Positions 10,093 to 55,986 of a stretch of 64,000 nucleotides of DNA are shown here, piece by piece. This stretch comes from Cenococcum geophilum (lineage: Eukaryota), in assembly GCA_050273025.1 (NCBI GenBank), contig CP158635.1:5642001-5706000 (forward strand), read 5' to 3'. Position 1 is the first letter of the stretch. Each line of letters starts with the position of its first letter. The notes below the pieces were generated by a model, which did not search any database, was not told the DNA's origin, and worked only from the letters and a program-made list of their open reading frames with translations. Position numbers and translations under genes: made by a program.

Positions 10093-10142
<50 letters not shown>

Positions 10143-22271: not shown

Positions 22272-25200
22272 TGTCACGGCACTGACCTAACGCATACTGT
22301 TTCATACTGTCTCGTACTATTCCCTACTGTTAGCTGGCCCACCACTAGCGACTTGGCGGCCGGCCCTACTATTTATATACAATACCCCCTTTCTACCTTC
22401 TTCCCCTCTTTATACCACAACGTAGTTATTTAGTCTACTTTATTGCAGCACTGTAATAGTTTGTAGTATCTTTAATTTACGCCCTATCGCGATCACTGAT
22501 TCCCCGTACCTTAGCCAATTAACCTCTACCCTAGAGCAATCGCGACCTACGTATACCTCTGCTGAAACCGATACATCCCTAGCACAGTCCTAGAATAATC
22601 CTTAGTTTTTACCTAGCGCCTAGATAGGCGACACTAATAATGCCGAAATGGCCAAAACCTAGAACCCCCGCGACGTTTTTATAGACCTATTTATAGAGAT
22701 ATACCCCAATATCGCGTGGATAATCTGCTACTCCCTACTATACCCTAAAACCTTTAAGCCTAGCAAAGCTTACTTTACCCTTGTCGACTATACTAATAAG
22801 TTCCTTAATAATATTAAAGTAGGACTATAGTATATATATAATATAAACACCGCTAATAAGAAAGCTAATAAAAACCTTAGTACCCTTATTGCTTCCTAAA
22901 TAGGAACTATTAACTCCTAGATAAAGACTATTACCGTTTTAAAATAATTAACCCCTATAATAACGGTAGTAACCTAGCAGAAAAAACGGAGATCTAAAGA
23001 CCCGCTAATATTTAGCGGAAAAGGCACCCCGCTAGAATAATAAGCTAATTTTAAGACCTAGCACATTAAGATTAAGGGAGTCTTTAACTGGGACTGGGAC
23101 TACTTTAACACAGTTTAGTCTTAGATCCTTTATATCTTAGATATACTAGAGGACAAGGCCTATAAGTTTATTAAGTAGGGCCTAGAGCTTATATACGAGA
23201 ACCTAAATAATATATCTACGTGGAAATGGCCTACTAAGGAAGATATGCTTAAAGACCTTACTGCCCACTATAAGGTCCTTAATATAACCTAGGTCGCAAA
23301 GAATAAGCTTAACCATTTCCCCTAAGGCGAGCGTAATTACTAGTCCTAAAAGGGAGAGCTTAATAAGCTAATAGTCCGCGCTAAGAAGACAGACAAATAG
23401 AAGGTAGACCTACTTTAAAAGTTTATCTCTCTAAAGATAGAAGAGCTAGTACTTGGACTGGCCCATAAAATTAATAATAGCGACTATATAGGTTGGAGTA
23501 AGTAGATGGATATGTTCGCTAAGAATCTTGCGAACTATACATACCGAGCTAACCTTAAGAAGAACGCTAATTACCGCCTACCTGCCTAAGCCCCTGCCCC
23601 TATGTTAACCTTAACCCTAGCAGTGACTAGAGAACCTATAGACCTTAATAGAATCTTAGATATAAAGCGTAAGCGCCACATTAATAATAGACTGTGCCTT
23701 ACCTGTGGCCTGCCTAGCCACTAGAAGGATGCCTATAACCCCACTAAGATAGCAAACCTAGTCCTAATACTACCTTATTAAACGACGCAAATAAATAACC
23801 GCAGACGTGGCGACCGTAAAGTCCATTATAGACGCGGTAACCGCGGAGCCTATTATAGCCGCAGCGGATAACCCCCCCCTTTAACCCTATAGCTTAGTTA
23901 CTCCAAACCATACCCTATATAGGAGCCTAACCCGTTAATAACGCCTAGTATTAGCGACTTCGCGCTAGCGAATATAAACACGGCTACATTATTAGCGAGG
24001 TATTATTTTCCTATACCCTAACTAAAATAGAGACAGATACCGCCAGCTAGACGGATACTAGACCACCCTACTAAGACAGCCCCGTACCCTAGTTGTTAAA
24101 AGGTAAACCCTTAAACTAAGTTGCGCCTAAGGGTCTAAACCATATAAGAAGGAAGATGAGAAGATTAGGTCCCTATTACTAGATTAATTAGTCCTTTCTA
24201 TTAGTAAACTACTACTTAATCTTAGATTAGTAAATAGTGATAAGAAATTAATCCTTATTTAAACCTAACTCTCCTTATTACGTAACCTATACCCCTAAGT
24301 TTATATTAATATAGTAAGCCTAGTGGACTCCGGTAGTACTATAATAGCATTTGCTAACGCAGAGTCTATTATAAGAAAGTATAACGTTATAACTAAGAAG
24401 CTGCTAGCACCTAGGCCACTATACCTCGTAAATAGTATCCTAACTTTACTTATTACGGACTACTTTACCACCTAAATATTAATTAGCCTCTATACTAAAG
24501 CTATACTCTTTTTTATTACTAAACTCTCGCCCACTACCCTAATTATTCTAGGTATATTTTGGCTTTAGAAGCATAAGCCCCGTCCCAGCTTCAGGAAACT
24601 TAAAATCCGCTTTAACTTAGATTACTACTCTAGGCACTGCCTCCTGTGGGGAATAGCCGACGTTAGTAGGGACGCCCTATATAGATACTTAGCACTACTA
24701 AGCCTAGTGCCTAGGACTATATATAAAGCCCTAATAATAGAAGATGTTCCTAATAAAGGGGAGCCTATATAGCTATAAAGAAACGAGATAGTAGAAGACT
24801 AAACTAACCTAGTACTTAAGACCAAAATAACGGGCTAGCCAGCCCTGCCGAGACCAAGGAAGAAGGTCCGCTTTACACCACTACTACTAAGAAATTAACC
24901 CTAACCCAGGCACTATTTAAACCCTAGCCACCTAGCCTAATACCCGGAACTAAGCCATATACTATATACGCACACTATAGCTCGCGTTATAGTAAGGACT
25001 GGCTATAGAACTACCAAGACCTAGATAATAGAAACCGCGCTACCGTAACGCCTAACCTCATACCTATCTCCCACGCGTACTATATAGGGCCGCCGCCTTG
25101 TTTCCGCCCCCCTGGGCCAACTAAGCTATGCTAGCCTAGCCGTAGCACCAGAGAGTTAGATATGCCCTAACCTAGACAATATTAAATACACCCATACTAT

Positions 25201-28200
25201 TAATTTTACCTAGTTCTATAAGCAAAAAGACGTAAAGGTAATAAGGATTTATATAGCGGAGCTAGTAAAACTAGTTAAACAAGATAAGCACTAATAGTTG
25301 CTTAAAGAGCTACCTATAGGCCTAATAGAAGTACTAAACCTATTAAAAAAGTCTTTCCGCTGGCTGGTGGAAGGCGACTATATAATAAAGGAAGCCCATA
25401 AAGCGCTCCCCCCCTATTTCTATAACTTCCTTAAAATAAATCTAAAAACTAAACCCAAGCTTTTATATCGGAAGATAGTCGACACTAATATTAAAAATTT
25501 TTTAAAAGGTAAACCAGGATTAACCCGCAAAGATATTCTATAACGCCTATTAAAGGAGTTTAGTAAATATATTAAGCACTTCCTCCCTAAGAATATAGAT
25601 AAGCTGCCCCCTTACCAACTATAGGACTATAAAATTAAGATCACCCCCGGAAACTAGGCCCCGTACTATAAAAATAGACTACTTTTACCTACTAAACTTA
25701 GGTATATAAAGAAGTAGATTAATAAGATGCTAAATAAGGGTTTTATCCGCGAATTAACCTTACTAGCTACCGCACCACTCCTCCTCGCTACTAAGCCTAG
25801 CGGCGGTATATAAATCTGCTATAACTACTAAGGCCTAAATATAGTTACTATTAAGAATTAATACCTACTGCCACTAATCCGCGAGACACTTGACGCACTT
25901 TATAGCGCTAAGTACTTTACTAAACTTAATATAATTGCTACGTTTAACCGGATTTGGATTGCGGAGGGCTATAAGTGGCTTATAGCATTTATTACCCGGT
26001 TCGGACTCTATAAGATACTAATTACACTATTTGGCCTCTATAACGCACCCGTTACGTTCTAGAACTATATTAACTATATTCTATATAACGCCCTTAATAA
26101 CTACTACACTGCCTATTTTAATGACGTTCTTATCTTTTCTAAAACACGCGCTAAGTATATTAAGTATATAAATAAAGTTATCTAAAGACTCGGTAATGCT
26201 GGACTTCAGATTAATATTAATAAGTTTAAGTTCTACTCTACTAAAACAAAATACCTTGGCTTAATTATCTTAATTAATGGTATAATTATGGACCCTAAGA
26301 AGATATAGGCCTTATAGGAATGGAAGGACCTAACATTAATTAAAGAACTATAATAATTTCTTAGCTTCGCGAACTTCTACCAACAATTTATCTAAGGCTA
26401 CTCTGCTATTGCTATACCTATGATAAAACTTCTAAAGAAGGATATTGGATGGCTATAGGGACTAGAATAAGCTAAATCGTTCAAGGCCCTTAAGGGAGCC
26501 TTTACTTCAGCACCAGTACTAGCATACTATAACTATATAAAGAAAATAGTAGTAGAGATAGACGCATTAAATTGGGCTTCCGGCGGAGTCCTTTCCTAGT
26601 ATAATGACGACGGAAAATTAAAACTGGTTGCATTCTTTTCTATAAAGCACTCCGCGCTGGAATATAACTATAAGATCTATGATAAAGAACTCCTAGCTAT
26701 TATTAAGGCTTTAGAGGAATAGCGTTCTGAGCTGTAAGGGACTAAGGAGCCGTTTAAAATTATTACCGACCATAAAAACCTATAGACGTTTATAACTACT
26801 AAGTAGCTAAACTAGCGCTAAGTCTAGTGGGCAGAGTTTCTTTTATAGTTTAACTTTGTAATTATATATAGACCTAGTAGCAAAGCTACGCTCCCTAATG
26901 CCCTAAGCTAGCTACTAGGAATAAGGCCTAAGGACGCTAATAATAAACGCCTCCGCCACTAAGCCTAAGTTATTATACTACCCTAGAAAGTTAACCCTAT
27001 AATCTTAGAAGAATTACTATATAAGTCCTATAACTCTAATGACGCGGAGTTTATAGCCGCTCTAGACCCTAAAATAGCCAAAAAGTCACTAGATAAGTTA
27101 ATCTAGCTAGGATACTAGGAGAACAAACTCGCAAGAGATATAGTAGCAGCCCTGCGTAATTAAAAAGCTCGCCATTAGCTAAAGAAAATTAGGAAATTAT
27201 TCTATTGCGATAAGTTAGAATATAGTATTATTAACGGACAGATCTACTTCCGCTAATGTCTCTTCGTCCCTAACGCCTTAGACCTCCACCTAAAAGTTAC
27301 TTATCGCTCTTATAGCAGCGGCCTCACTAGTTACCCCAGCCGGGTTAAAACTTTTAACCTCTTAAACTAAATATACTAGTGGCTAGGAATCTCCTAGTTT
27401 ACGGCTACCTTTGTTAAAGACTATGCCCTATACTTTCGCACTAAGACCCCCCATTCTGCCCCACCTGGTTTCCTAAAGCCATTAGAATTACCCGCCCGCC
27501 TGTGGACCAATATCTTAATTAACTATATTATAACGCTACTAGTATACTAACGCTATGGCAAGGTATATAAATATATCCTTATTATTATAGACCGCCTAAC
27601 TAAAATGTAATACCTCGTTTTAGTAACAGGACTCTTAATAGAGGAGTTAGTTAATAGCTTTATTAATAATATATATAAGCTCTATAGTGCACCAAGCATA
27701 ATTATCTCTAATCGCGGTATATAATTTATTAGCGACTTTTAGTAATAACTAAGTAAACGCCTTAAGATAACCTTGCGACTAAGCTTAGCCTAATACCTAG
27801 AAATGGACGGCTAAACCAAAATTATTAACGCCGTTATAAATAAATACCTTTATACTTTTATTAGCTTTATATAGGATAACTAGGTTAACTACCTACTGCT
27901 TACTAAGTTTGCTATAAATAACTAAGTTAATAAGAGTATAGGCATCTCCCTATTTTTTACAAACTATAGCTTTAACCCTCACCTTGGAATTAAGCCTACT
28001 AGCCCCTACCTACTGACACTATTAGTATAAGTAAAGAAGGAGTTCTTCCGCGCAGACTCTATGGCTAACTACTTTAAGCGGATATTAATATAGCTTAAGG
28101 CCCTAGCCCGGATTTCATAGTAACGCTATAAAGATAATACTAATACCTATAGGGATAAGAGCGCGTTATTCTATAAAGGTAATATAGTTATAGTTAGCTT

Positions 28201-29185
28201 AGAAAATATAAAGATAAATAGACCTAAGAAGAAATAGGACGATAAATAGGACGGCCTGTACCCTATACTTATAGTATACTAAGGGGCAGTCATAGTAGAC
28301 CTCCCGGACTACATCTGAGTAAATAAATCCTTTTATATATTTAAGGTCCGCCTCTAAGCTGCTAAAGAGATCCCTAGCTAAGCAAATATTAATACTGTAG
28401 AGCGCCGTAATATACAAGGACGAGTAGTAGAGAGAGATAATAATAGCAATATAGAAGACAAATAGGAGTTTAAGAAAATCCTTAATATATATAACGAAGA
28501 CCCCTAGGGCCTAACTTATAAGATTAAATAGAAATATTATAAGGATACAACCTAGCAGCTAGAGGAAGACCTAAAAGGTTATAAATAAGCTGTATAGCGC
28601 TTCTATAAGCAACACCCTAAGAAGCTAAGACCCCCAGACTAGGCACGAGATAAGGAAAAGTCACGCTAAGGTCGCGGCCGACTACCGCATTAAAATTTGT
28701 GGTGGTTAAGATATTATAGAACTTTAACTAGCGGTTAAAGTTATCTAATTAGCCAAATTCTTGCCAAGAAACGCCATACGGACCGATTTAGGTGGCGGTA
28801 TAGAGTTCTGCCAACCTTACTTACTAAACTAACTAATTAAGATTTTCTATGCCCGGCATAGAAAATCGCTATTAGCTTAGTTAAGGGCGGTAAGTAGAAC
28901 TAATATCTTTACGGTAGAAAATAGGCAACCCTATATACTGCCTATTTTTAAGTTATTTATTTAGTTTAGGGACCAAACTGTTTAGGGGAGAGAAGTACTA
29001 TTACGGCACTAACCTGACGCATACTATTTCATACTATCTCGTACTATTCCCTACTATTGGCTAGCCCACCACTAGCGACTTAGCGGCCGGCCCTACTATT
29101 TATATACAATACCCCCTTTCCACCTTCTTCCCCTCTTTATACCACAACGTAGTTATTCAGTCTACTTTATTGCAGCACTGTGACA
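22272..29185 (+). mobile_element. Ty3/Gypsy (chromovirus-like) family A, full length 6914 bp, RIP-inactivated
   Basis: 187-bp LTRs 22272-22458 and 28999-29185. TSD cctag. PPT ~28984-28998. Remnants of protease LVDSG (~24320), RT, RNase H, integrase and chromodomain (~28460-28610). Confidence 0.96.
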
Positions 29186-30501
29186 CCTAGGGTTAAAGGG
29201 GTCCTATAAATAGAGAATATTATATTAGTAATAAGTTTACTAGAAACTGTAGGTATAGAGTTTATCCTATTAGGAGATATAAACCTCTACTACCCGCGCT
29301 AGGGGGGTATCTATATTACTGCTAAATAATAGGCAAAGTGCCTATTAAGAGCTATAGATATCTAGGGCCTTAAGCTAGCTACCCCCTTAGGAGCAATTAT
29401 ATGGCAATAAGGCACCGTTAAAAGTATAATTAACCTTATATTTATAGACGAAGGCCTATACTAGAGACTTAAAAGGTGTAACCCTAAAGAAGAATAGGCA
29501 CTTGCCTTAAATTATATCCCTATTTAAATATAGCTAGATTTAGACATTAAGGCGTAACTAAGTAGTAAAAGATACGTAATAAGGAAGCTTAAAATAGACA
29601 GTTTCCTTAATATAGTTAAATAATAACTTTAAGACCTAGAAGAAATCTACCTAATACTAAATAAGCGAGGCTTACTGGCTACCCCTAAGGAAATTAACTA
29701 TAGACTAGAAAGGATCTAGGCAGTAATTAAAAATAGGCTAAAAGAGCACTACCTAGTCTTAAAACTAGGCCCCTATATGCAATACGTATAGTCCGTATAA
29801 TACGCGGTTCTTATTACTAGCTAATAATAAGTAAAAAGGAAATATATAAGTAGCTATAACCCTAAAGATAAGAGATAATATATAGATATAAGAAACTAGT
29901 TAAAGAATACCTTAAAAAAAAGTAAGGAATAATTAGAGACGGTTTATAAATAAGTACACTTTTAACCTAAGCCTCCCCTATAATAAGGGCCTTTAGGCTA
30001 TAGTAAAATAGGTAAAGAAAAAGGTAAGACGTTTAGTAAAAGACTTATACCTACTGCCTTTATAAAGAGCAGGGGAATTATAGGCTACTAATAATAATAA
30101 TAAAAAGGCAAAGATCCTTATAGAAAGGTTCTTCCCCTAACCGGCTTTAGTAGACCTTAGTAACATTATAGGTAAAATACTAGTAACTTGCCTATGGGTT
30201 AATAGCGATATAATAATAGAGGAAATGGCTAGAACTATTAGCTGCCTTTTAAATAATATAGTATTAGGACTAGATAGGATCCTAAATAAGGCCTTAAAGA
30301 CCTATAGACTACTTATAGTACCTTAGCTTATAGATATAGCTAGAGTATACTTTACTATAGGCTACTACCCGCAACTTAGAAGATCTATAATAACGGTTAT
30401 TTTATAAAAAGAAGGTAAAGGAGATTCCTTAACCCCAGGAAGCTACCGCCCTATTACCTTAGAAAACACCCTTAGCAAGATTTTAGAAAGGGTAATAGTA
30501 G

Positions 30502-31079
30502 TATTAGGTAACGACAAGGGGCAACGAACGTATATATATTAGTTACCGAGCCGTCAAACCATTCGGTTCAACACTGTACCTTTTTAGCCAGTTGCGTTTG
30601 TTTAGCTCGGTGGGCGATTATTACAGAGTATCGAACCAAATGCGGAGTTCTCCGTGGCTGAGTTTTAGACGCGTCTAGTTATAAGTGCGATTCCAGTTAT
30701 ACATAGAAAAATAATTTTATTCAGCATTGGCCGATCGCGACCCGAGTTACGCCTAGTCCACGTACAATGTCCGATTAAGGGTTACGGCCCATATGGGGTT
30801 CCGACCGTAGCTGCTAGAGGTCGCTAATATATATAAGACGCCTAAGGCACGCGCGCGCCCCTAAGGGAGGCGTTGTTAGGCAAGGGTTCTGACAGGGGCA
30901 ACGTATACGTACGTTGGCGCCCGCGGTCGTGCGCTCCTAAGAAGGGATGCATTGTTAGGTGACGATAAGGGGCACGAACGAACATACATATATTAGTTAC
31001 CGAGCCGTCAAACCATTCGGTTCGACACTGTACCTTTTTGGCTAGTTGCGTTTGTTTGGCTCGGTGGGCGATCGTTATG
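30502..31079 (+). mobile_element. TRIM (terminal-repeat retrotransposon in miniature), 578 bp, inserted in the LINE RT
   Basis: Direct repeats 30502-30625 and 30953-31079. TSD agtag (30497-30501, 31080-31084). Purine tract aagaagggatgcat before the 3' repeat. Non-coding ~327-bp interior. Confidence 0.9.
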
Positions 31080-33162
31080 AGTAGACCACATAGTAGATAC
31101 GGCTGAGGAACACGCCCTACTACTATAAAGCTAAATGGGGGTAAGAAAGAACCGCTTAATATTATTAGCACTTACGCTACTTGCTATCACTATTAAATCT
31201 ATATAGGTAATGTAAAGGGACTTTACAGTATTAATGCTAAGCCTAGATATTAGTAGCGCCTATAATAACGTACCCTATAAGCGCCTCCTATACATCCTTA
31301 GGGTAAAGGGCTTCCTAAAATAGATTATATAATTTATTTAAAGGTTTATAGGTTAAAAAAATTATTACTGGTCTTTAGTAGGTACTAGAGCCCCCCTATT
31401 ATAATTACAACAGAAACACTATAAGGATTACCCCTCTCGTCTATACTCTTCCTTTTCTTTATAAGTAACCTGCTTAACTTCTTTAAGGAAGGGGCAACCT
31501 AGGGGATAAGTTTTGTTAATAATATAAACCTAATTATATACGGGCTAATAGCTGTAGAGAATTATAGAACACTAGAGAAAGCCTATAATACCTATATAGA
31601 ATAGGTAAGATAATACGGAGTTTAATTCTCTCTAGAGAAATACTAGCTAATCTATTTTATAAGAAAACGCAACTAATTTATAGATCTTTAGCATATAATT
31701 TATATTTAAGGCTTTAGGGGTTAACTAGTTTAAGGCCTAAGGGTATTAGGAGTATAGGTAGACAGTAAGCTCTAGTAGAGCGTATATACGTTATAAGCGG
31801 CCCATAAGGACTAAGCTTAGTATATTATAATATCTAGGATTGTTAATTCTATATAAGGTCTATGCTTCTAGAGGTTACGCCTACTATATATAGCAGTTGT
31901 CTAGCTAACTATAACGTATAGATCTAGTATTTAGGCAATAGGAGAATCCGAAAAAAGCCCCCCTAAATTACTCCTTAAACTACTCTAAAAGGTCTAAATA
32001 GCCTGCCTTTAGAGTATAATAGGCGGGTATAAGTAAACGGCTATAGTATTGCTTAAGAAGGAAGCTAATATCCCCCCCCTATAATTATATATTAAAGCCG
32101 CTGTAATATAAAGGGTATAAAAGGAGCGTAACTCTAATATTATAAAGTATATTAATACACGCCTAAACAAACTATAAAGGGACCCTAGGGTGCCCCGCAG
32201 GAGAGTAAACTAAATACCCTAAAGTAGGGAAGATATATTAGAGAAATAGGTAAAGAAAGTAGAAGAAAAATAGTATTATATTAGGGCCTAGGCCTATATA
32301 AAGGAGAAAGGGAGATATATAAGAGGCCAGTAAAGATAATAGCGAGAGAGAGAAAGGAGCTAAAGTAGAGTATAAAAGAGTATTAGGAAACTATCTACTA
32401 TAATATAATACTGGTTAGACCAATACTAAAAAGGTATATAGGAGTTAAAGGTATAAAGGCTAACTTAGGCAAGAGCAACCTAAGCTATAGTATAGTTAAT
32501 ATTATAGGGGGTAAATACCTAGGGGCTCTAAAAAGGTCTAATAAAAGTAGAAAATATAATAGTAACACTTATAAGAACAGGAATAATAGGACTAAAAGAT
32601 TGGCTCTACTAGGTAGGTGTCTTAGTAGGTAGCCTAAGATATAAATATAGCTGGCTAAGATAGACACTAAAACACGTAATACTATTATGCTCCTTATGCA
32701 CTAACTAAAAAGTAATGCTCTTAGTAGCTAGTATAGAGAACTATAATATACTACTCTTAATATAAAAAGGTTTTAAGGCGGTTACCTAGTAGCTTATTAG
32801 CTAAAATATACTAGACTAGTTCTAGGTTATAAAGGAAATAGTAATAAAAGGTAAAGGGGCGAGTAATAGGCGTCCCCTAATAACTCTATAGTAGTAGAGT
32901 AAAGTTTACGATACTAGCGCGTCCGTAGGCTTATTACGGCAGTAGTAGTTCCTAAGAAGGTTAAAAAGAAAGGTAGTAGAGCACTACTGGCAACTTAAAG
33001 GCGCTAAGTAGGCAAGTCCTAAAAGGCGGGGAGATAGATTATAGGGTTTTCTTAAGTTAAGTTTTTCTTAAGTTGAGTTTTCTCTCTATATGTAAATAAG
33101 GAGTAGTTCGCGTAGGCTTAATAGGGATCCAAATCGGACGTTAAGCAATGAATTATTATTAT

Positions 33163-35330
33163 ATATAGCCTTCTGCTTAATTTAGTAAAGGCTTTAATAA
33201 ATACTTTATTAGCTTTAAAGATTAAAATATAAATAAGGCCTTAAGTAAGTCTCTCTTTAGCTTATTATAAGAGTATATATATTAGATCCCGCCGCGCTTA
33301 CGACAAGTTCGCAAGCACTCGATGTCTTTTTGGCTGAATGGCGACGTAGGGGCAGGACACGTTATACTTATTATATTTAATAGTAATCTAACTATAGTAG
33401 TATTATAGCGGACGTATATCTTGTTATTATTCTAGTAGATGTTCTTATTATTAAGCTTTTAGATATATATAAGGTTAGTATAAAAGTTTAGTATAAAGGC
33501 TACTCCTATAAATAGTATCTATTTCTTACCCTTAAGGTAGCTAATTATAACTATAGCTATACTAAATTCTATAATCTCTTCTATATATAAGCCTGCATAA
33601 AGTTAGTCTAAAAAAGGCTTAATATTGCTAATAAATCTAGCTTAATTGTTAAAGACGTATATATTAATTTCTAAGTTAAAAAAAAAGCACTATTATAAAG
33701 CTTATAGTTAGGAGCTATATTATAGATTTCTTTTTAATAACCCGTAAAGGCTCTAGTAGGCTCTTATAAGCTCTAATTACCTCTATCCTTTAGCTTTAAT
33801 TTTAGGTATTATATTCGCAATCTTTTTCCTCTACTTTCTTTTAAAATTTGTTACTTAGTTTAAACTAAAATAGGTAAGGAATTAACTCTACTATATACTA
33901 GCATTTGTTATAGTAGTAATGTTTTCTATATAGGCACTTGTAAGGGTTATTTTAACCCTTACTCTGGTGCATCGCATAAGGGCCGCTTAGGGGTAGCCAA
34001 GGCCTAGCCGAAGGCTAGGCTTGGCACCTCCTTATAAGCACCTCAGGCTTACAGCCCTTCCCTCCTCATCGGTTTGTCTCTGTACTAGGGTATTGCCATA
34101 CCTACTCTTTACCATATCGTCCTCTTCTATCGACTCTCCTTGTGACTCATGCTCGGCTTACCTGCTCCCTACCATATACCTAGGCAATATGCCTTACAGC
34201 ACTTTAGCAGCAGTCGCCTTTTCTTCTTCTACTTATCTACTAACGATTTAGGCTTTAATCTAGGCTTTAAATTTAGCGACTTACTTAACTTATTCTTAAA
34301 AGTAACCATAAAGAATCTTTATAGGTATTTGCCTTTCTAAGTAAGCTCCGTATAACGGTGGTTTTAGTATATTTTAACTAGTTTAAAAAAGCTAAGAAGC
34401 ATCTTCTTCTTCTACTTAAGCCTTTTAAGCTAATTCTTCTAATATTCTAACTAGCTTAATATAATTAAATTAACTATATATATATAAAGTCTTTTATTAA
34501 ACAAATACTATCTACCTTAGGTAGATTTAGTTCCTTATACTTAGTATATACCTTCTCCTACTCCTATAACTAGACTTTAAAGTTTTAGTTCTAAGGCGCT
34601 TTCTTAAGCTTTATATACTAAATAGCGACTTAAAGCTTTTAGGTATTATTAGTTAGAGAAATTCTCTACTTTAGTAACATTAAGGCGTTATAGGTAGTAT
34701 ATATAAATAAGGTAAATACGTAAGATAGAGCTTTAGATTTAACTGCGCAATATATTAAAAGCTAACATTTATTTTCTATATATCTTTATATTATCCCTAT
34801 AGTCTAATTAAAGTATATAAAGTTTCTCCTTTTTATTCTTATCTAGCTTTAAAAGCTTTGTCCTCCGGCTATTAATATCCTTTAGTAAGGCTTAAATAAG
34901 TTCTTTAAGATTTAGTAAATCAGTCTTAGGCATTAATAGGTCGATATATCCTAGAGACGATTGTTATTAGCTTTTAACTTAATAACCTTAATCCATTCGT
35001 TCTAATTATTTAGGCTTGCTAGGATAACGGATAATATAATAACAGGCTTAGTCTCTTGTTCAGAGATTATTATAGGTATCTATAATTAAGACAATAATAG
35101 AAATTAATAGAAATAAAGGCTTTAAATTAAAGATAATGCAGTGGACGGCCCGGGCTTATAACTATTAAATGGACAGTTAGGAATAAGAACTCTATCTTAT
35201 TACAAGAGGCTCTAGAGCCTTACTATATACACTAGATAGGTAGCAAATAGAATAACGACGACGTCGTTATTTAGTTGGTAATATTTAATAGAAACAGGTA
35301 ATAAGACATTCGAAAAGACATACGAAATCA
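33163..35330. other. RIP-degraded AT-rich sequence of unidentified origin (possible decayed gene or TE on the minus strand)
   Basis: Same TpA-rich composition as the neighbouring TEs, but no domain I can recognise. Confidence 0.4.
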
Positions 35331-35450
35331 AGAAAGACAGTACTTAGTCATAAGTTAAGAGACAACTGAGCCATTGTACGTAAATACGATCTAGGTCGAT
35401 AGATAGTAGTACGATGGTAGTAAGGAGATTCGATTTAGGTCGATAGCTAG

Positions 35451-35930
35451 TCTCTGGAGTGTCTCGCAGGAATACAAAGAGTCTTTCTCTAATATGACCA
35501 CCAGCCTCGAAGATCACCTCCAAGATATCGACCGCAGCCTTCGAAGAAAATCCTGCCTAGGATAGAGGATGTCCGCCGAATATACAGCCGACCGCCGGCA
35601 AATACAAGAGGAGCAGGGCAATGTCGAACAATTTTCATCTAAGCAAACGGACAAGGCTCGATCTATTTCCTTTGGAGACGTTTCCGCGGCCGAAGACGCT
35701 TAGCAAGTGATTGTAGCTACGCGTGGAGATTCTATCTCGGCCACGAGGTTACCGCTGGGTTCGAGCATCACAGTAGCTAGGTCAGATGTCTGATGGTGCC
35801 TTACAGCTGCTCTCACAAAATCGAGGAGTGAGTTCGTCTAGCTACACGGGTTCTACAGACAGCATACAGCGGGGTAGGCAGGCGGATACGCAGTTTGAGA
35901 AGCAACGTGAAGGGGGTACAAGCTTACTTG
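35451..35930 (+). pseudogene. Degraded fungal gene, resembling from recall the HeLo-like N-terminal/azaphilone-cluster protein L family
   Basis: Fragments QEYKESFSNMTTSLEDHLQDID and ISFGDVSAAEDA*QVIVATRGDSISA..Q*LGQMSDGALQLLSQNRG. Stops at 35701 and 35774 plus frameshifts. Family assignment is from memory only. Confidence 0.55.
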
Positions 35931-36431
35931 ATGTAGAAATGCATATGCTTTGTATTTGGTGTACTCGACAATGGGCACTCTGATATCGCGGGTTTCAACA
36001 CTCAGCTGAAGACCTTAACTCACCTACTAGCTCAACGCCCCTTGGTTATTCTCGGGGTACTATTTTATATAGACATTTACATTCTTCACAACCCCAGTTC
36101 CTCATTCTGGCAAACTCATAACCTGTTCCATCGCTCAGAGAATAAGCCTTTCACCGACTCCAAGAGAGCCACTCTCAAATTGTTAGGCTGGACTCCTTTT
36201 TTTCTCAAAGTCTCACGCATTTCCTTTACTTTAATCTGAAGAAAATCAATAACTTTGCATTCCTATAAGTCCTATTCACCCACCACACCAAGTGACCAGC
36301 TGAACAAACAATAAGTTGACAAAGAAACCCCTAGACGGACCCATAGCAAACAGTCACAACGTCCACAGGTTGAACATGTGCAATGTGTTCTCAGAACGAC
36401 TATCCAGTCATCGCAACTGCTTCCACCCCTT

Positions 36432-37697
36432 TTACAGTCTGGTTGTCTCCCCTCCATATCGGCTCATGACGCTACTACTGAGCACATTGCCTGAGAGGGC
36501 TATAAGAATCCCGTTAACAAACCGCCATTCCTCCTCGTCTAAAGCCCCTGTTGCCATCAAGCGCTCTACTTCGGTGTCGATTTGGCACTCGATTTGAAGC
36601 TGCAGGGCATATGTCTGACTTATTGCGGCCTCCTCGTCCGAGAGACACATCACTCGTCTGATCATATCAACAGTATTGATAAGGTGCATGACTTTTCCGG
36701 TATCAAAATGATGCTTTTCCTTCTTCCAGGAGCCCAGATCATTCGCTACCGGCACGTGTTTACTAGCGAGGCGTATAAATTTCTCCAGTTTGGGGCTGGC
36801 GATGTCAATGCTAGAACCTAGAGAAAATTTCACACTTGCAAAAACGTATCTGTAATTTTATATTAGTATTAAAACGGACATAGAGTCTGTAGGTGATTCT
36901 TACGGCACTGCGGCATCCTCAATACGATAATCGATAAACTCATCAAAGTCCTTGAATTCTTTTGGGGGGTCAGAGCGGCTCAAAAAGCCCAGTATATGGT
37001 CTATCACTTCCTGCCCGCCATTGCCAGAAATGCTATCCTGATCGTGAAATCCTTTGATTGTGAAGTCGATCAGGGATTGTAAAGCCGACTTAGACTCATT
37101 ACTGGAGTTGAGTTGGTCCTTGCTCCGAGCTATCCGCGGGATAAAGTTGTTCTGCATTTTCACGAGCTATTATCCTTTAGTAAAGAGCTATATCCCAGGA
37201 ATTCCTACTAGGGCTTACATCTGCTCCACCGTGCATCTCCCAACAATCTATGAGTGAGAACAGGTTAGTCTACTTCGAAAATTTGGCTGAGATATAACTC
37301 TCACAGTGGCGGCAATGGAAGTCTCCTACTTACCGTCACTAATATAGACGTAAAACAATGTTGACGCTAATAGTACCGTTCGCTGCTCGTCAGCATAAGG
37401 CCAAAGATACATGAAGAACCTTGCCCATGTATCTTGGACTATTGGCATCTCGCGCTTTGCAAGACCTGCTAGAGATAGTCCGTTGGACTTGAATGATTCC
37501 CCAGCTGTGTTGTCTATGGCAAGCAGCTCAAGCAATTTGGTTATCATCGCAACGCCTGCCTTCCAGTGCTTGGTCTGCTGAATTGTCTTCAAACCCGTCG
37601 CGAGTGGTAGACCAGCCGTTAGCGGGAAGACGCTAATAGAATTTTCACTTTGCAAAATGGACTTATGATTGTCATTCCGGGGCTGTCCGTCGTTCAT
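36432..37697 (-). CDS. Class I terpene cyclase (sesqui-/diterpene synthase), 4 exons: 37697-37334, 37247-37219, 37166-36904, 36849-36432; 357 aa (365 aa if the ATG at 37721 is used)
   Basis: Three GT-AG introns with branch-like sites join into an open 1074-nt frame. The DDxxE motif (DDCWE) is formed across intron 1. Also YRIEDA effector region, NSE motif NDLGSWKKE and C-terminal RY. Confidence 0.9.
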
Positions 37698-37891
37698 TCG
37701 AAGAAATGTTCCTGACTGCATATGCGTATTTATCTTTAGCGGAGGAGGCTTGAGATAAGGGCCCAGATTTCCGATATAGTCATACCAATATCGGATGGGG
37801 CAGATGCATGCTTTATCGGCCACTGGTGTGAGCACATCTAGTAAACATGTCAGGCCATTGAGTAAAGGGAAATATGGCTGTAGTTTTCTAA

Positions 37892-46749: not shown

Positions 46750-49165
46750 CCCCCTTTATAAATAGTCTATTACTAAATTATAGGCTATAAAGTAGTATTT
46801 TATTAACAACCTAAATAAGGGCTTTATTAAGCTTAGCTAAGCCCCTTTTACCTTACCTATTCTCTTTATTAAAAACCTAAATAGAAGACTCCGCTTCTGT
46901 ATTAACTATTATAAGCTAAATAATATAACCTATAAAGACTACTATCCGCTTCCCCTTTTTAATAAGACTTTAGCCTAAATAAGTAAAGCTAAGGTCTTTA
47001 TAAAGCTTAATATCCGCTAGGCCTTCTACCAAATTAGGATAGACCCTAGGTCTAAGAATTTTATTATATTTTAGACCCGTTACGGAACGTATAAATATAA
47101 AGTACTTTCTTTTAGACTAACTAACGGACTAGCTATATACTAGCGGTATATAAACAATATACTCTTTAACTACCTTAACAACTTCTATACGGCCTATTTA
47201 GATAATATTATAATCTACTTTAAGAATAAACTAGAATATAAGGAGCACGTCTATAAAGTCCTATAATAGCTCCGCGAGGCTAGCCTCTAGGTTAATACTA
47301 AGAAGTTGGTGTTTAGTGTTAAGCGTATAAAGTACCTAGGTTTTGTTATTAGTACGGATAGAATTAAAGCCACCCTAAAGAAAATGGCTATAATTAACTA
47401 GTGGGCACCCCTATAGACTATAAAGGGGGTATAATTATTTTTAGGGTTTTATAACTTCTACTAATACTTTATTAAGAACTATAGTAGGATTACCCAGCCT
47501 CTTAACCATCTTACTAGAAAAAACTAGCCCTTTTACTTTAACGCTATATATAGGCAGGCCTTTAATAAGCTTAAAAACGGCTAGTATTGGCTTCCCTACT
47601 TGCCTATTTTGACCTAAAATGGCCCTTAATGCTAGAAACTGATGCCTTAGATAGCGCGATAGCTAGTATTTCCCCCCAGAAGTAACCAGATAGAGAATAG
47701 CACCCTATTATATACTATTTAAAGACTATAATAGATGCTAAGCTAAACTACCACATCCATAACAAAGAAATGCTGGCTATTATCTTTAGCTTTTAGTATT
47801 AGCGTATATAGCTAGAGGGGACCCCTAAGCCGATTAAGGTAGTTTTAGATTATAAGGCCTTAGAATACTTTATAATAACTAAGGCCCTTATAGCCTAGTA
47901 GGTATACTAGGCAGACACCCTATCTTGGTTTAACTTCTTAATTATATATAGACCAGGCGCTATAAACCGTGCAGATACTTTTATAAGGCGTAAATAAGAC
48001 CTAAATAACCAGACGGCTGTGAAGATCTTATTACAGACCTAGACGCTACTATAACTAGAATACCTTAACCCCCAGATATAGGCAGAACTAAGTATAGACT
48101 CCTTAAGCGCCAAAATATATCCTATTAACTCCTCTAAACTTAACCTTATTAATAAACTACTATAGGCTAACCAAACAACCCCCTCTCTATAGGAGTACTA
48201 TAAAAAGGCAAAGAACATTACTAGCCCTTAGTCCCTTAAAAATGGACTACTTAAGCACTAGGAACGGCTAGTAGTAGTTAAGGAATAGAACTTACGAACC
48301 TGGCTTATTACTAAAGCTTATACCTAGGTCTTTACGGACTACCCTAGAAAAACTAAGACCTGTAAGATTATTAGTAACCGCTACTACTAGCCCGGAATAG
48401 TTATAGATATTAACCGCTATATATAAAACTGTAACGACTGCCGCAGATCTATAATTCTATAAGATAAGACCCTAGGACTATTAAAGCCACTTTTAATACT
48501 AGAACGCCCCTAGCAGTATATCTCTATAGACCGTAACGGATACGATATGGTTATAATCCTAGTTAACCGCTATAGTAAGCGCCTGGTCTTAATCCCCTAT
48601 TATAAGAATATTAATACTAAAGAGGCGGCCTAACTATATATCCATTACATCTACCAAATTTACAAACTACTAGATACTATTATATCCGATTACGGGCCGC
48701 AATTTATATTAGCTTTCTAGAATAAGTTTACCTAGATCTTAGGCATTAAGCTAAAGCTTTCTATAGTATACCACCCCTAGATAAATAGTTAGATGGAAAT
48801 TATAAATTAATACTTAGACTAGGGACTTCGGCCCTTTATTAACTACTTCTAAGATAACTAGGGTAAACTACTACCCCTAATAAACTACGCCTAAGTAACC
48901 CTACCTTACGACTCTACAGGATTTGCCCCTATTTAACTAGAAATAGGTTACTTACCCTATATAAGCTTTAACTAGGAAAGACTAGAAGGACCCCAGACTA
49001 TACGCGAAAAATTATCCTATAAGGAAGCACGGCAGTACGCTAAGCGCTTAGAAAAAGCCTAGACGGTAGCCTGTATAAATCTAGAAAGGGCCTAGAAATT
49101 AATATAATAGTAGGCGAGTAAGTATAGGCGAGAGCCTAACTTTACTATAGGAGATATAGTTTAGG

Positions 49166-52100
49166 TGTAAGGTGAGGATATAAATAGGGAGTCCAATAAT
49201 AAAATAATAGGTGTATTATATAGACAGAGACAAATCCTTAAGGGAAAAAGGAGGAGTCTGTGTGCGAGGTAGGAAGGGTTTTCCTTAGGTATATATAGAG
49301 CACGTGCCTTACGGGCGAGTCATCCCTAAGTTGACCTAGGGTCGCCCATACCTTGCAGCTATATAGCTATCTACTTAGGTTTCACCTAACAATGCCCCCC
49401 CCTTTAAAAAGGGTTGTCCCCAATCCTTTATATACTTAAGCCTTAATAAAACCCTATAAAAAACCTTAGTAAGGAAAAAAAAAATTAGAGGGGAAAGAGT
49501 GTCTTAATTTTGCGTATAGAGAGACGGGTAGTATATATGCGCGGCGCGAAGATGTTAAGGAACTTCGACCGGCGGTCGAAGTTGTCTAATTAGTCAGATT
49601 TGCCTTGCTAAGACTCCCCCGTATTTAACCGAGCTAGTAGCAATTTTATATACCCGGTATAGAAAATCCTAATTAGTCTATTTAATAGGTAGAGCTAGTG
49701 AAGTTTAATACCGTCGCCTAAATTCGGTAGACCAGAAATATTCTAAAGCTCGCTTATATAAGTAGGTCGCTAGTACCTTGCGGATAAGTTATAGGTTATT
49801 TATATATAGCCAGATTTATAGACGGTAAGGCTATATACCTATTAAATCCGCCACTAACCCTACTTTGGCCTTACGCTATACCGGCGTAGCGCCGTGTATA
49901 CTTTATGGGTAGGTTATAGGTTATTTATATATAGCCAGATTAGGACGGTAGGGCTATATACCTATTAGACTCGCCACTAACCTATACTTTAGCCTTATGC
50001 GTTATCTGCGTAGCATATACGTGGAATAGTATATAAGTTATTGGTATAGGTTACCACTAGCGGGTTACTAGTAGGTTATAGACCCCGGTTAAATAGACCC
50101 CAGTTATAAACGGGCCTATTCTTTAATATATAAATAATCTGCTTAGCTAGTATAGAGTAACGGACTAGGTCTAGGAAGGGTGCTTTCTAAATTAAGGCTG
50201 TAGTTCTTATAGTAATTATTACTTATTCTTTAATCCCTTGGGATATCCTCTACTCCGCTTTAATACAGGTTATATTTTAACAGCAGTGCTTACTTTTTGC
50301 CTACGCTTTAGCTATAAGGCTAGGGTGTCCCGCTTGCGGTACTTATCTAATAGTTATTAATAATTTTTAAGTTCTATCTCGTATTTTTATTTATTATACT
50401 TATTTAGCCATCCTAGCCATTTAATAAGGTACTATAGTTATCTAGCATAATCCTAGTAGGCGATAATTACTTCTACTTCCTAGCTGCCTTCCTTAAGCTC
50501 TTTTACTGCTAGGGGTTAAAACCTAGGGCGCGACCTGTAAGGCTCTAGTAGGGAGATATAGAAAACTAGGTGGAGCTATGCTATAGTAGGTAGGAGCTCT
50601 AGCTTATATGCTTACTACCCTACGCGCTCTAGGATCTAAAACGGTTCTATAAACTTGTAGTTAAGCTTTTTGTAGGGACGTTTTATGCGGATATTCTTAG
50701 AGGAAAGTAGGACTTATTTACTAACAGCGAAGTGCTTAGCTAGGTGGTGATAATTATAGTATTTTACCTAAAGCTTTTAGGCGTATATTATTAACGCCGC
50801 CGCTACCTTATATATAAGGCGCAGGCGTTATAGGTGCGTCTCTGCGAGTTAGTTATTCGTTAACTTAGACCCCTCCCCACCTTACTAGGCGTCTTAGACG
50901 CTATCTAAGACTCTATCTAGAACGTTTAGTAGCTAGCTATAGGCGAGCTTAATAGGGGAACGCTTTATTATAGTATAGACTTTAGAGTTATAGGTAAAGG
51001 CTACTTCTTTAAGTAGGGAGGCCCAATTAGACTATTCCTAGTTTGTAAATATACGTAGGTATATCTTAAGCTCCTAGTTCTAATACTCTGTCTAACTATC
51101 TATCTACAGGTAAAATATAGTACTAAGTTTATATTAAACGCGGAGATGGTAGTATATAGTACTCTAGTACTTGCTTATAAATATACTACCCCTATTAGAG
51201 ACAATATTATTTAGAGGCCCTATTTACGTAGAGACTCTAAATAAGAGTTCTGTAAGTTGCGTAGCATTAATTATCTTACGTACTAGATAGTAGCGCACTA
51301 GCTTTATAAAACGGTTTATAAGGACAAGGATAGAGTTACACTCTGCGCTATTAGAAGTCTTAGACTCTAGGAAATCTGTAATAAAGTTAAGTAAATAATA
51401 CTGCTAGGCTTGGGTGGGGACCTAGAGAGGCTATAGCTTACTATAGGGTTTATAGCGACGCGATTTAAAGCGTTAGTAGGTATTATAATTATCTAGGTAT
51501 TTATAGAGGCCCTAGGTAAGGCCGTTCCAAGCGTACTTTTACGCGATTACCTTAAAAGTATAATTAAAACTATAGTGGCCGCCTATAGGATTATTATAAT
51601 TCCGCTTAAGGATCTCCTGCTATAGTAGTATATAATTTGGTACCTAGACTTTATTATTTTACCTTAAGAGTCCTTAATTATTAAGGGTATAGTCCTTATT
51701 ACTAGTAGGAACTCGTTTTTAAGTTAACTGATTATATATAGAGCGTATAAAGGCGTCCCTTTTTTATACTCTATAAATAAAATTAACTAGTAACTTAGGG
51801 GGTTATTCCGTAAACGCCGTTTTAGCTAAAGTAGCTATTACTACCTCTTGCCGTGGCACGAGACTCTACGTAAAGTTAGTGCTAGCGAAGTAACGTGCGA
51901 TATATAGGTAACTCACTAGGTTATTGCGGGGAACTATAGCCTAGGCTAAGGGGTCTTCCCTAGGGTTAAGCGCTATTAGGTTAGTTAGAGTGGTCTTAAA
52001 GAGAATAGTAGGACGCTCTTATCCGCCGGCGCTAAGTTCACAAGGGTTACTTATATACTGCACGCATATTACTTACTAGTTTAGTATAGTAGCACTAAGG

Positions 52101-55100
52101 CTGCCTATAAGGCCTATAACCTACAACTTTTGCTGTAATATAGGCAGTATAGTATTAAGGATTATCCTCTTACTACTATCTTTAAAGCCTTTAATATAAT
52201 CCAGGCGCCGGGATAGTATATTAGTAGAATTTATCTTACCTAGCTTATATTTAATCTTAAAATTAAACTTAGCTAGTTCCTTAGCGTACTAGGCCTAGTA
52301 AGTAGATAAGCTTTTAGTAGTTATAAAGTACCTAAGATTATTATAATCATAGAGTATACGCGTTATATGCGTGGCGTATTTAAGGTAATAGCGCCACGTC
52401 TTAAAGTATTACACTATAGCGAGTAGTTCTTTATTATGCGCATTATACTATACTTCTAAACTAGTAAGCTTTTAACTATAATAGGTAATTAGGTGCTAGT
52501 AGAGTTAATTTCCTTACCTTAAAGGCTACAGAAGTATACCGCTATAGGCATAGTTAGAAGCGTCAGTAATTACTATTAGGGGTAAATTAGGGTTAAAGTA
52601 GTAAAGTAGAGGAGCCTATATAAACGCAGCGCGTAGCTTACAGAACGCCTACTATGTGTCATTAGGCTAGGACCAGGGTTAATACCATTTAGTCGGCCCT
52701 TTTAACTTACGCTTCTTCTTCTTCTCCCTATTTAACGTCGGGTTATGATATACTTATACAAGATATGCGTATAGGGGGTATGCGGTATTTAAGTAGTTCT
52801 AGATAAATCGCCTATAGAAGTTAGTAAAGCTAAAAAAGACCTAGATATCCCTATAGGACTTAGGCTTAGGCCATTCCTTAATAGCTTTTACGTAGTTAGG
52901 GTCTATTATAATACTCCTAGGGGTAATAATAAAGCTTAGGAACTTAACGTTCTTAGTATAAAAGATATATTTTAATAGTTTAGCGTATAGGCCCCAAGCG
53001 CGAAGCTGTTATAGTACCTGCTTAACATGCTTAACGTGCTTATCCTTATCATTTAAGTAGATAAGAATATTATCTAGGTAAACTACGTAGATAGTATCTA
53101 CTAGGGGTTTTAGAGCTTTATAAATATAGCTCTAGAAAGTTATAGGAGTATTAGTAAGACTAAAGGGCATTACTAGGTACTTAAAGTGACCGTAATATGT
53201 CTTAAATATAGTCTTCTATTTGTCTCCCTTTTTAATATAAATCCTATAGTACGTATTACAAAGATTTAGCTTTATAAATATCTTCGCATAGCTAAGCCTA
53301 TTAAAGAGTTTGCCGACTAGCGGTAGGGGGTACCGGTTTTTAATTGTAATCTTATTTAGGCGTCTATAGTCAACGCATAGCTATATTATACCGTCTACTT
53401 TCAGTATAAAGAGGATGGGCGCTCTAGTAGGCGACTTACTGGGCCTAATTTAGCCCTTTTTAAAAAGCACTGTCTAGGTACTCTTATAAGATCTATAACT
53501 CTTTCTATAAGAGGTTATAGAGGGGTATTTACAGTAGCGTCTTGCCTTCTTCTAAGTCAATTATATAGTCGTACTTAGAGTTCTGCGGTGGTATACTTGC
53601 TAGCTTATTAGAGAAGATATTAATTTCCTCCTTATATATATCTAACAGGCCGGGGGCTATAAAGGTTAAAGTAATTATTATATAATAGTGTGCTTCCGGG
53701 AGCTAGTAGAGAGAAGGATGCAGCTAATATGCGTTTTATAGGTATACTTGCACTAAAAGTGCATACAGCTCTACTATAGTATACTTAATAGTTTTGGGGT
53801 TTTAATTACCTCCCCCTTATGTATAAGTGATCTGCGCTAGCACCGGAGGGTCTCTATAGGTACTCGCTACTAGTGACGGCAGGTCCTCTACTATATTTAT
53901 AACCGGTATCTTTATATCTAGAGGGTCTGCACGGGTACTCACTACTAGTAATAATAGGTCCTCTATTATATTTATAACCGGCGTAAAGAAGGAGTCTTCT
54001 AGCTATAGCGAATAGACTATTTTACTAGCCTTAATGTTTACTAGGAGAGCGTTAAGGGTGACTATTTAGAGGCGTCTAGGGTTTAAAGTACCCTAGATAA
54101 ACTATCTAGAATAGAAGCTAATTAATAAATCTACTTCCGCAAGTTAATCCTATCTAAGAACTATATTATAACTATTAAATAAGCCGCCCTAAAAGGTCTG
54201 CGGGCCGATAGTGCGAGAGGTACCCTAGAAGTCGCTAGTAGTAACCATCAGATTATAAGCATCCTAGATTGTTATTTAGTTACTATTAAGGAAATATATA
54301 ATAGGTTTACATAAACGTAGCGCGTAGCGTATAGGCAGGTTAAACCTATAGACGATATCTTAATTAATAAGGTTAATTTGGTACCTATTATCGTATAAAG
54401 CATATAGGCGGACTTCGCCCTAGGGCGTATTTATTGCAATGTATACCATAATACGTTTCTTCTCTCCCTTTATATTAGGCCCTAGTTGCAGTTAAGAGAG
54501 ATGCGCTACTAGGGCTTTAGGTTTTCTAAAGGCCGAGCTAACTTCTCTTTATTAGCCTGCTTCTAGTGTTCCTTATAGTGGCCGCCTACGGTCCTTTAAC
54601 TCGCCTGCGTAGCACTAGCGTCTGGGGGGTCCCTTAAGCTATCTAGCTTTTAGGTGGTCTCCCCGGGAGTTTACTTAGAAAAGCGTCGCCCTTTTTAGGT
54701 TTTATTCCCTAAGCCTAAGTCTATAGAGCCTATGCTGCGACCGCGCTTCGTATACAATAATTTGCCGCTATTACTTAAGCGATCTTCCGCGAGCTTTATA
54801 GTATTAAGCAATTACTCTATATAGCGGATTTTGTTAAAGAGGTCTTTAGCGGTTTTTACCTATTAGGCGAAGTTCTGGCGGAAGAGCTCTACTTATAGGT
54901 AGGCTAGGAGATATAAGAACTAAAAGTCTACCTATTATTTAAGATTAATAAAAGGGGTATATAAGAAGAGGTCCTTTAAGCTATATATATAGGCTAGGAA
55001 GACGTTAAACCTCTAGTTCTCCTTTATAATAGCCGTATAGTACATTATAGCGTTATTAAAGCGTCTCACTATAGGGTTCCTAATTTAGTCTTGGACTATA

Positions 55101-55986
55101 GTCTTAAATTCGTCCTATAGTAAAGGACCCTTATCCTTAGTGCCTAACCGGCAATAAACTAGTTAGGCGATTATCTTCTTTTTTATAAGACCTTTAATGG
55201 CCTAGCGCGTGCGTCGCTTACAGTTATAGTTAGCGTTATTAACCTTAAATCGGGTTTTAACTGCGGCAATCCACCGGTTAAAATGCTGTTAAGTAGTACC
55301 ACTAATATTAGGTAGTAACTTCTTAACTAAGGCGTTAAGATTTAATTAGCGTATACGTTCGCCATATAACTTATACTCTTTACTAAAGAGGTAACAGAAG
55401 GGCTTTATTAAATTAATAATACTCCGTAAGTTAGCTATTTTCTTAGCCAGCTTATCTAGCTCCTTTATATTAGCGGTATTAGGTAGGACGCTAGTAACCT
55501 TACTAAGCTCCTATTAAGCCTAGGTATATAAGTTAAACTAGTTTTTAGCGTTTATAGATATCTAATCGTTTTAAGATTTAGAAAATAGCTTAGATGCTAC
55601 TAGTATGCTTCTAGCGGTTTTGCCTACACTAGATCCTAAGGCATTCTGCGGTTGCATTGCTAGCGTATTACTGTTAGGTATAGGCGTCGGTTTTCTTTTT
55701 AGAGGCATTATAGAAAAATTAAACCGGCTATCCTCTTAAGGGGATTGGTAAGGATTTAAATATAAGGTAAATATGTAAATAGGGAGTCCAATAATAAAAC
55801 AATAGGTGTATTATATAGATAGAGACGAATCCTTAAGGGAAAAAGGAGGAGTCTGTATGCGAGGTAGGAAGGGTTTTCCTTAGATATATACAGAGCACGT
55901 ACCTCACGGGCAAGTCACCCCTAGGTTGCCCTAGGGTCGCCCGTACCTTGCGGCTATATAGCTATCTACTTAGGTTTTACCTAACA
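49166..55986 (-). mobile_element. Ty3/Gypsy family D, full length 6821 bp, RIP-inactivated
   Basis: 226-bp LTRs 49166-49391 and 55761-55986. TSD ttagg. PPT 49392-49405 on the minus strand. RT LCVDYR/YLDNIL (~53370, ~53070), RNase H TDAS, integrase and chromodomain remnants. Confidence 0.95.

Follow-up and report, generated by a model that had tools for sequence, protein, structure and literature searches.

The window, the whole stretch of 64,000 nucleotides that was analysed, carries at 30502-31079 a real, gene-less miniature LTR element (TRIM) of 578 bases, further called family A, whose primer-binding site (PBS) shows complementarity to a motif of its own LTR. Self-priming of the Tf1 type is likely for this family, judged by sequence comparison: three families are each matched to their own PBS, the distance from the TATA tract to the motif is constant and a hairpin in U3 changes together with the motif. 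Within known transposon biology family A stands out as an unusual variant; it would extend Tf1-type self-priming to sub-kilobase parasites, backed by covariation rather than by one match.

Structure of the element in the window

The coordinates of the features are collected in Table 1. The original prediction had delimited a 578-bp TRIM, and this was borne out by the LTRs, the 5-bp duplication, the polypurine tract (PPT) and the absence of coding capacity: the 327-bp interior, read in three + frames, gave no Pfam match besides the reverse transcriptase (RT) of the flanking LINE. With 537-578 bp in total and LTRs of 106-127 bp the family lies within the size of a TRIM (<1 kb, direct terminal repeats of approximately 100-250 bp), and target-site duplications, dispersed copies and solo LTRs are present. 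The PPT ahead of the 3' LTR is short and not pure. The tRNA-complementary PBS of a classical TRIM is absent and a self-complementary one stands in its place.

Table 1. Positions in the window of the features of the family A copy and of a candidate helper element
Feature	Position	Strand	Basis or remark
Left target-site duplication copy AGTAG, 5 bp	30497..30501	+	right copy at 31080-31084
5' LTR, 124 bp	30502..30625	+	identical ends found in solo LTRs
TATA-like tract	30531..30540	+	first base 29 nt upstream of primer motif; 29-32 nt in families A, B, C
U3 partial PBS copy, hairpins with primer motif	30553..30560	+	one G>A in window copy; present and family-specific in A, B, C
Putative self-primer, predicted first 16 nt of RNA	30560..30575	+	predicted start site
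T5 run, possible Pol III terminator and part of short R region	30581..30585	+	5 nt past primer motif; in A, B and C a T4-T5 run follows at 5-8 nt
A-box-like motif in U5	30603..30613	+	tRNA-gene matrix scoring
PBS, complementary to LTR motif	30627..30642	+	complementarity and shuffle tests
B-box-like motif in leader	30684..30694	+	TT core is TG in 4/4 copies of this genome, TT in 3/3 metagenome copies
Interior motif common to family B, loosely to C; candidate packaging/recognition signal (inferred)	30807..30830	+	cross-family comparison
Degenerate second copy of PPT and LTR start	30852..30912 (limits approximate)	+	0-5/2000 shuffles in 4/4 copies tested
Purine-rich tract (PPT) and short spacer ahead of 3' LTR	30936..30952	+	last 9 nt and LTR start common to family B
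3' LTR, 127 bp	30953..31079	+	primer motif 31014-31029, T5 run 31035-31039, A-box-like motif 31057-31067
Right target-site duplication copy	31080..31084	+	AGTAG as on left
RIP-damaged Tf1-like Gypsy, candidate helper family, outside TRIM	49160..55986	-	domains and LTR ends

The two LTRs of the window copy are approximately 90 % identical and all 13 substitutions between them are transitions. The insertion site of the copy is a LINE reverse-transcriptase region damaged by RIP (weak RVT_1 match, E 0.0016), and RIP-like dinucleotide indices extend across most of the window; these signs mark the host as a fungus with active RIP. Beyond what had been noted earlier come the sister families, the masking hairpin in U3, the T run, the A-box-like motif in U5 and the B-box-like motif in the leader. 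An inverted LTR copy in the interior (30795-30840) was considered and rejected, as equally good matches appeared in 32, 176, 1256 and 156 of 2000 shuffles. Rfam yielded only weak sub-threshold matches to unrelated RNA families within the element, and the folding energy of the whole segment (z -0.62) was uninformative.

Copies of family A

The genome search for family A, in which the best 40 of 58 candidates were scored, gave four interior-bearing copies, i.e. the window copy, two on C7 and one on C4, all showing RIP damage, together with at least 25 solo LTRs. Among 25 solo LTRs the 5-bp duplication was perfect in 21 and had one mismatch in three; the remaining one was perfect when read separately. 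Three more whole copies, each with a perfect duplication, came from a single metagenome assembly. The flanks of the seven interior-bearing copies are all different, and the interior of approximately 325 bp is collinear in both sources; six of the seven are intact and account for the size range given above. The U3 occurs in length variants of 106, 121 and 123 bp, on which the two LTRs of a copy mostly agree (the window and C4 copies are the exceptions), and this agreement indicates repeated regeneration by reverse transcription.

No long or autonomous element with the family A LTR was found: of 47 LTR ends identified by pattern, three had the PBS behind them, and no other interior was shared among the rest. 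The copy on C4 is split by a 13-kb insertion (L040/L041, C4:16448144-16461196). This stretch was considered as the long parent element and rejected: it was inserted later, has inverted repeats at its termini and is accompanied by a duplication of approximately 10 bp. The nest is presumably Mutator-like.

Pairing between the PBS and the LTR motif

The 16-mer at 30627-30642 is separated from the 5' LTR's last position (30625) by a single base. The pairing claimed originally, 14 of 16 positions with the 3' LTR motif (31014-31029) and two G>A mismatches, was reproduced; with the 5' copy (30560-30575) 13 of 16 positions pair. Of 3000 dinucleotide shuffles of the LTR, 1 attained 14/16 and 11 attained 13/16. 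In the metagenome copy L042 the PBS and the motif pair at 16/16, which was matched by none of 3000 shuffles.

One of the two PBS G>A changes is common to all four copies of this genome, leaving 11 bp as the longest perfect run, and occurs in none of the three metagenome copies; the LTR-motif base opposite to it is altered in only 3 of 25 solo LTRs. This distribution suggests that the change was probably inherited in the lineage of this genome and not produced copy by copy by RIP. The T>G change in the B-box-like motif, with the same distribution (4/4 here, 0/3 in the metagenome), is a second mark of the lineage. In the available text of PMC6317226 self-priming is recognized by at least 10 nt of the LTR complementary to a sequence beginning 0-5 nt past the 5' LTR. 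By this measure families A, B and C show 16, 15 and 14 nt, respectively, the window copy being broken by its two G>A changes.

Sister families and covariation

Family B was found in a search with the PPT-LTR junction, whose 28 matches comprised the window, 18 family B loci and nine belonging to an unrelated repeat. The family sharing this junction had initially been taken for the helper and turned out to be another TRIM: the 10 of 18 loci examined were all TRIMs, either 526-593 bp long or enlarged by nested insertions. It has 127-bp LTRs, a modular, variable interior and at least 24 copies with a PBS (L045-L054, L056-L084), and the two LTRs of the copy L048 (C5:18448966) are identical. The PBS of family B is a different 15-mer, complementary at 15/15 to LTR positions 58-72. 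The outermost pair is A:T in 21, G:C in two and G:T in one of the 24 PBS that were readable at 29 loci collected by the shared interior motif. Two family B copies carry reversed insertions. L047 (C7, ~17000000-17006000) harbours a 5.8-kb LTR element with 176-bp LTRs, whose PBS we take to resemble the half-tRNA-iMet type of Copia, and L053 (C5:8833292-8836300) contains 2.4 kb with a long poly(A) tail.

Family C was reached through a 101-bp LTR nested in one family B copy, and its PBS was predicted from the LTR ahead of inspection. The exact junction pattern with a 1-nt spacer failed (two matches, neither behind an LTR), but the core of the predicted PBS was found with a 3-nt spacer. Elements of this family measure 446-448 bp with 101-bp LTRs, and there are 532 LTR candidates in this genome. 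At 30 loci examined (L087-L116), seven LTRs were followed by an interior, six of them with a 14-15 nt perfect complement after the 3-nt spacer and one with 10 nt; PBS and motif pair at 14/14. Family C is very young, and the sister families are young and numerous. In L108 one LTR is preceded by a PPT and followed by a PBS, as in a tandem unit.

The three families are homologous: LTR alignments were equalled in 0-2 of 500 shuffles and the A-B interior alignment in 0 of 500, with weaker interior alignments wherever C was involved (15, 15 and 292 of 500). The duplex energy is -22 to -27 kcal/mol for the own-family combinations of motif and PBS versus -4 to -8 for the cross-family ones. Within a family the changes are transitions, which RIP can mimic, and only the cross-family change is clean, since RIP is unable to produce a changed motif together with a matching PBS. 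The collected genomic copies thus display conserved LTR-PBS pairing that is compensatory across two homologous families, and the proposal of self-priming in place of a tRNA PBS gains its support from here.

Common layout, predicted RNA folding and the self-priming model

The order of elements is the same in A, B and C: the TATA tract, 29-32 nt, the motif, 5-8 nt, a T4-T5 run, the A-box-like motif, the LTR end, 1-3 nt, the PBS and the B-box-like motif. The TATA-like tract that had been noted upstream of the LTR motif is therefore confirmed, with a spacing of 29 nt in the window copy. In RNA predicted to begin at the motif, the motif-PBS duplex has a mean pair probability of 0.95-0.97 in the least damaged copies of the three families; it is weak in the window copy (0.37) and partial in L003 (0.73). 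With U3 attached, the motif is predicted to pair instead with the bases just upstream. In A, B and C alike this U3 stretch partially copies the PBS (7, 9, 42 and 1 of 5000 shuffles), with stronger own-family than cross-family pairing, and the motif in the 3' LTR is likewise predicted to be largely paired with U3 (mean 0.52-0.63). The upstream pairing of the motif in U3-attached RNA suggests that the start lies at the motif itself and that the 3' primer copy is concealed by the hairpin. The central duplex of the Tf1 'pretzel' is present; no side duplexes were found above chance, 424-888 of 1000 shuffles being equally good.

In the proposed mechanism the RNA would start approximately 30 nt past the TATA tract, at the motif, and its first 14-16 nt would fold onto the PBS across a loop of 51-56 nt. 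The reverse transcriptase/RNase H of a helper would then cut after the duplex and extend the freed end. The 5-8 nt spacer and the T run may provide the short repeat needed in strand transfer, while the second motif copy, at the 3' end of the RNA, would be held in the U3 hairpin and so would not compete for the PBS. A Tf1/sushi-type Gypsy whose ends match would supply the proteins. The ancestor of the family may have carried tRNA-like A and B boxes flanking the LTR end.

Candidate helper and other elements of the window

The Gypsy at 49160-55986, 6.8 kb in length, shows matches to RT, RNase H, an integrase zinc finger and Tf2-1 SH3 in Gypsy order and is very abundant, with 925 candidates in this genome. 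In 20 of 20 copies its LTR ends differ from the first 10 and last 9 bases of family B only by transitions, the same GCAT stands ahead of the 3' LTR and its own PBS is partially complementary to its own LTR. The ends of family C differ from those of this element, and the match to a helper is by ends alone. The element, whose ends resemble those of families A and B, is accordingly named here as a candidate helper, and the helper would presumably be a chromovirus.

Two 90 %-identical copies of another RIP-damaged Gypsy of 6.9 kb, with 186-bp LTRs and RT and RNase H matches, lie on the + strand at 22272-29187 and 39835-46751, and a further partial copy at 4-1574 (-); by eye, its PBS region is partly complementary to its own LTR. 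The stretches 35000-38500 and 8000-11000 are islands without RIP signature among the repeats and possibly contain genes.

RNA evidence

Four of 24 listed sequencing runs were compared with the copy L042. The raw-read RNA run (X21) gave 0 reads on L042 and hence provides no test. In two runs, which belong to different studies and of which one is recorded as RNA and the other only guessed to be RNA, contigs contain the interior together with the 3' U3 of an L003-type copy: 23 of 26 listed differences match L003 and the other three fall in a gap region. Among the five copies compared, only L003 has a 20-nt piece of U3 that is present in the contigs. None of the 11 contig records compared continues from the interior into the flanks, which fits an LTR-to-LTR transcript, although starts are not resolved by contigs and a contribution of DNA is possible. 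For a putative transcript 5' end at the first base of the primer, as in Tf1/sushi elements, the observations are the constant TATA spacing, the 0 reads of the raw run and contigs that do not resolve starts. A joint in the RNA contigs had suggested a circle and proved to be an L003-type 3' LTR with a longer U3. In other contigs of the RNA libraries (X13 record 10, loose ends in X12) a family A LTR is joined to hundreds of unrelated bases, and solo LTRs may thus enter host transcripts.

Alternative explanations

That the window copy arose once by deletion from an autonomous element and was passively copied, with the pairing inherited from its parent, is extremely improbable and has already been largely refuted by the independent insertions. 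The small number of interior-bearing copies in this genome, four and all RIP-damaged, would suit such an origin, but the target duplication differs at every copy, the interior is collinear in two sources, no long element with this LTR was found, and the sister families are numerous and of young age, L048 having identical LTRs and family C 532 LTR candidates. The idea of a unique deletion derivative is at odds with seven interior-bearing copies, each with its own 5-bp flanks, and with the solo LTRs. It is also very unlikely that the host provides the primer as a tRNA or half-tRNA, in the manner of Helenus and Copia of fungi, and that the LTR match is incidental. The family A motif does include a T-loop-like GGTTCGA, anticodon-loop priming is described for fungal Helenus in the accessible part of PMC10886601, and the host tRNA set used for comparison, 11 genes retrieved from 63 scored candidates of an Rfam tRNA search, is incomplete. 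On the other hand, the PBS of A, B and C lack the TGG start required for pairing with a tRNA 3' end, their longest complements to these 11 tRNA-like genes are 8, 5 and 7 nt, respectively, and three different PBS each have a 14-16 nt match to their own LTR. The absence of a tRNA PBS assumed in the original prediction agrees with this comparison, within the limits of the incomplete set.

A primer that does not derive from the RNA 5' end, either a trimmed 3' motif copy or a separate 21-27 nt RNA made between the TATA tract and the T run and acting in trans, is improbable to a lesser degree. The position of the motif 5-8 nt ahead of a T4-T5 run in all three families makes a short or 3'-terminal motif RNA geometrically possible; the predicted U3 pairing would, however, conceal the 3' copy, and priming from it offers no obvious repeat for strand transfer. 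Priming by the folded-back 5' end of the RNA is the preferred reading. It could also operate on RNA synthesized by RNA polymerase III, a refinement of this explanation that is possible but rather doubtful. The promoter would then be split, with the A box in U5 and the B box past the PBS, so that only a 5' LTR joined to the interior would be active and only intact elements would be transcribed. Transcription would start approximately 30 nt past the TATA tract and end with the 3' LTR's T run, which would produce a Cassandra-like terminal repeat of approximately 21-23 nt plus U's.

tRNA-like boxes

The boxes were scored with matrices built from 10 of the 11 retrieved host tRNA-like genes. Some tRNA-like genes of this genome (L139, L138 and L142) have very AT-rich flanks, L139 with a stop anticodon, and are possibly organelle-derived or RIP-hit. 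The A+B pair scores 13-25 bits in 16 element copies, and 12 of them reach 17.5 in comparison to 1 of 146 genomic control stretches; three Gypsy controls score 0-5 bits. In 5 of 6 family A copies the best pair consists of the U5 box and the leader box, and equally good pairs appeared in 0-19 (A), 0-9 (B) and 0 (C) of 100 shuffles. ARAGORN called the U5-PBS-leader segment a tRNA in 3 of 8 family B copies at default settings and in 3 of 3 family C copies at relaxed ones (-ps95), placing the LTR end in the anticodon loop. Runs of T4 or longer are confined to the LTRs in the four little-damaged copies checked, and Cassandra, according to the accessible text of PMC10886601, starts and stops within its LTRs with an 18-nt repeat.

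Several observations argue against transcription by Pol III. In the RNA libraries, contigs of the L003-type copy do not end at the T run in the 3' LTR but continue for another 11 and 21 nt, which speaks against a strict Pol III stop for those molecules, and the polymerase would have to read through the identical T run in the 5' LTR. In tRNA genes the distance from the start to the A box is usually roughly 20 nt, and the 34-43 nt between motif and A box is longer. No ARAGORN call was obtained in 6 of 6 family A copies down to -ps90, the B box of this family is damaged in this genome, and Rfam detected no tRNA in families A, B and C, whose relatedness also means that the boxes were not observed three times independently. 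A tRNA-like origin is well supported for families B and C and weakly for A. Tentatively, the three families might represent an undescribed ascomycete TRIM lineage that uses no host tRNA primer and yet has a split tRNA-derived Pol III promoter, with the LTR end at the old anticodon loop. Such elements would carry their own 14-16 nt primer and silence its second copy by a co-evolving U3 hairpin, and the primer, PBS and mask would turn over together.

Comparison with known systems

Self-priming is a common trait of the Tf1/sushi group (available parts of 10.1101/2022.12.06.519325 and PMC6317226), also covered in the accessible text of PMC4600332 and PMC2864245. The definition of TRIMs and self-primed fungal elements are both treated in the available text of PMC6934838, and ascomycete TRIM annotations in that of PMC4112212. 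No paper on a self-primed TRIM was found in the literature searched, in which subscription papers are scantily represented, and the families may be catalogued in Repbase. In a term search the accessible text of PMC13570524 gave no self-priming and that of PMC12910237 no TRIM elements. Five features are fixed in the three families: approximately 30 nt from the TATA tract, a duplex of 14-16 bp with CAC(U) at its end, a loop of 51-56 nt, a T run with its short spacer, and the U3 mask. The minimal requirements of self-priming become directly testable on a 170-nt RNA. Annotation tools that demand a tRNA PBS will overlook such elements, and tRNA finders can call them tRNAs.

Family A resembles the Tf1/sushi elements in having a PBS right after the 5' LTR that is complementary to an LTR motif downstream of the TATA tract and for which no tRNA match was found (available text of PMC4600332, PMC6934838, PMC6317226 and 10.1101/2022.12.06.519325). 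It differs from Tf1 in being non-coding and only approximately 0.55 kb long, in the undetected side duplexes of the pretzel, and in the added U3 masking hairpin and tRNA-like boxes. The duplex of Tf1 has 11 bp, in comparison to 14-16 bp in the present families. In contrast to coding members of the group, no Gypsy RT or integrase with a chromodomain is present; the element seems to work like them and is not a coding member. With TRIMs, as described in the accessible text of PMC6934838, it shares a length below 1 kb, direct repeats of 100-250 bp, a PPT, a 5-bp duplication, solo LTRs and the lack of coding sequence, whereas the PBS, by definition complementary to a tRNA in TRIMs, is here complementary to the element's own LTR.

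GalEa Copia elements of fungi, with their Conserved Hairpin Site (CHS), are likewise ascomycete LTR elements without a tRNA PBS, as far as the available text of PMC5445492 tells. Membership in this group was rejected by a by-eye comparison with that text, the 9-bp CHS palindrome (CHSeq1) being missing directly past the 5' LTR; GalEa, for its part, is presented there without an LTR complement to that site.

Helenus (TRIMp3; Kojima 2024, PMC10886601, available text) is similar in its tRNA-derived A/B boxes, several families per genome and 5-bp duplications in fungi. There it is described as tRNA-primed, with both boxes in each LTR and no complementarity between the tRNA part of the LTR and the PBS, linked to Copia in fungi and reported only from basidiomycetes. 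In the present families the boxes straddle the LTR end and are not contained in each LTR, the PBS is self-complementary, with no match to a tRNA end or anticodon loop in the 11-gene set, and the likely helper is a Gypsy. A motif search of the PMC10886601 supplement found none of the primer motifs of A, B and C. Cassandra, a TRIM of plants, has Pol III-type signals with a terminator in the LTR and a short RNA terminal repeat (accessible text of PMC10886601 and PMC7215508), and shares these traits with the elements described here. Its promoter is of the 5S type, its PBS of the tRNA type and its transcription experimentally shown, whereas the promoter proposed here is a putative split one of the tRNA type. 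If the split A and B boxes work, these families would unite the Pol III-driven TRIMs Cassandra and Helenus with the self-primed chromoviruses, which have so far been described apart.
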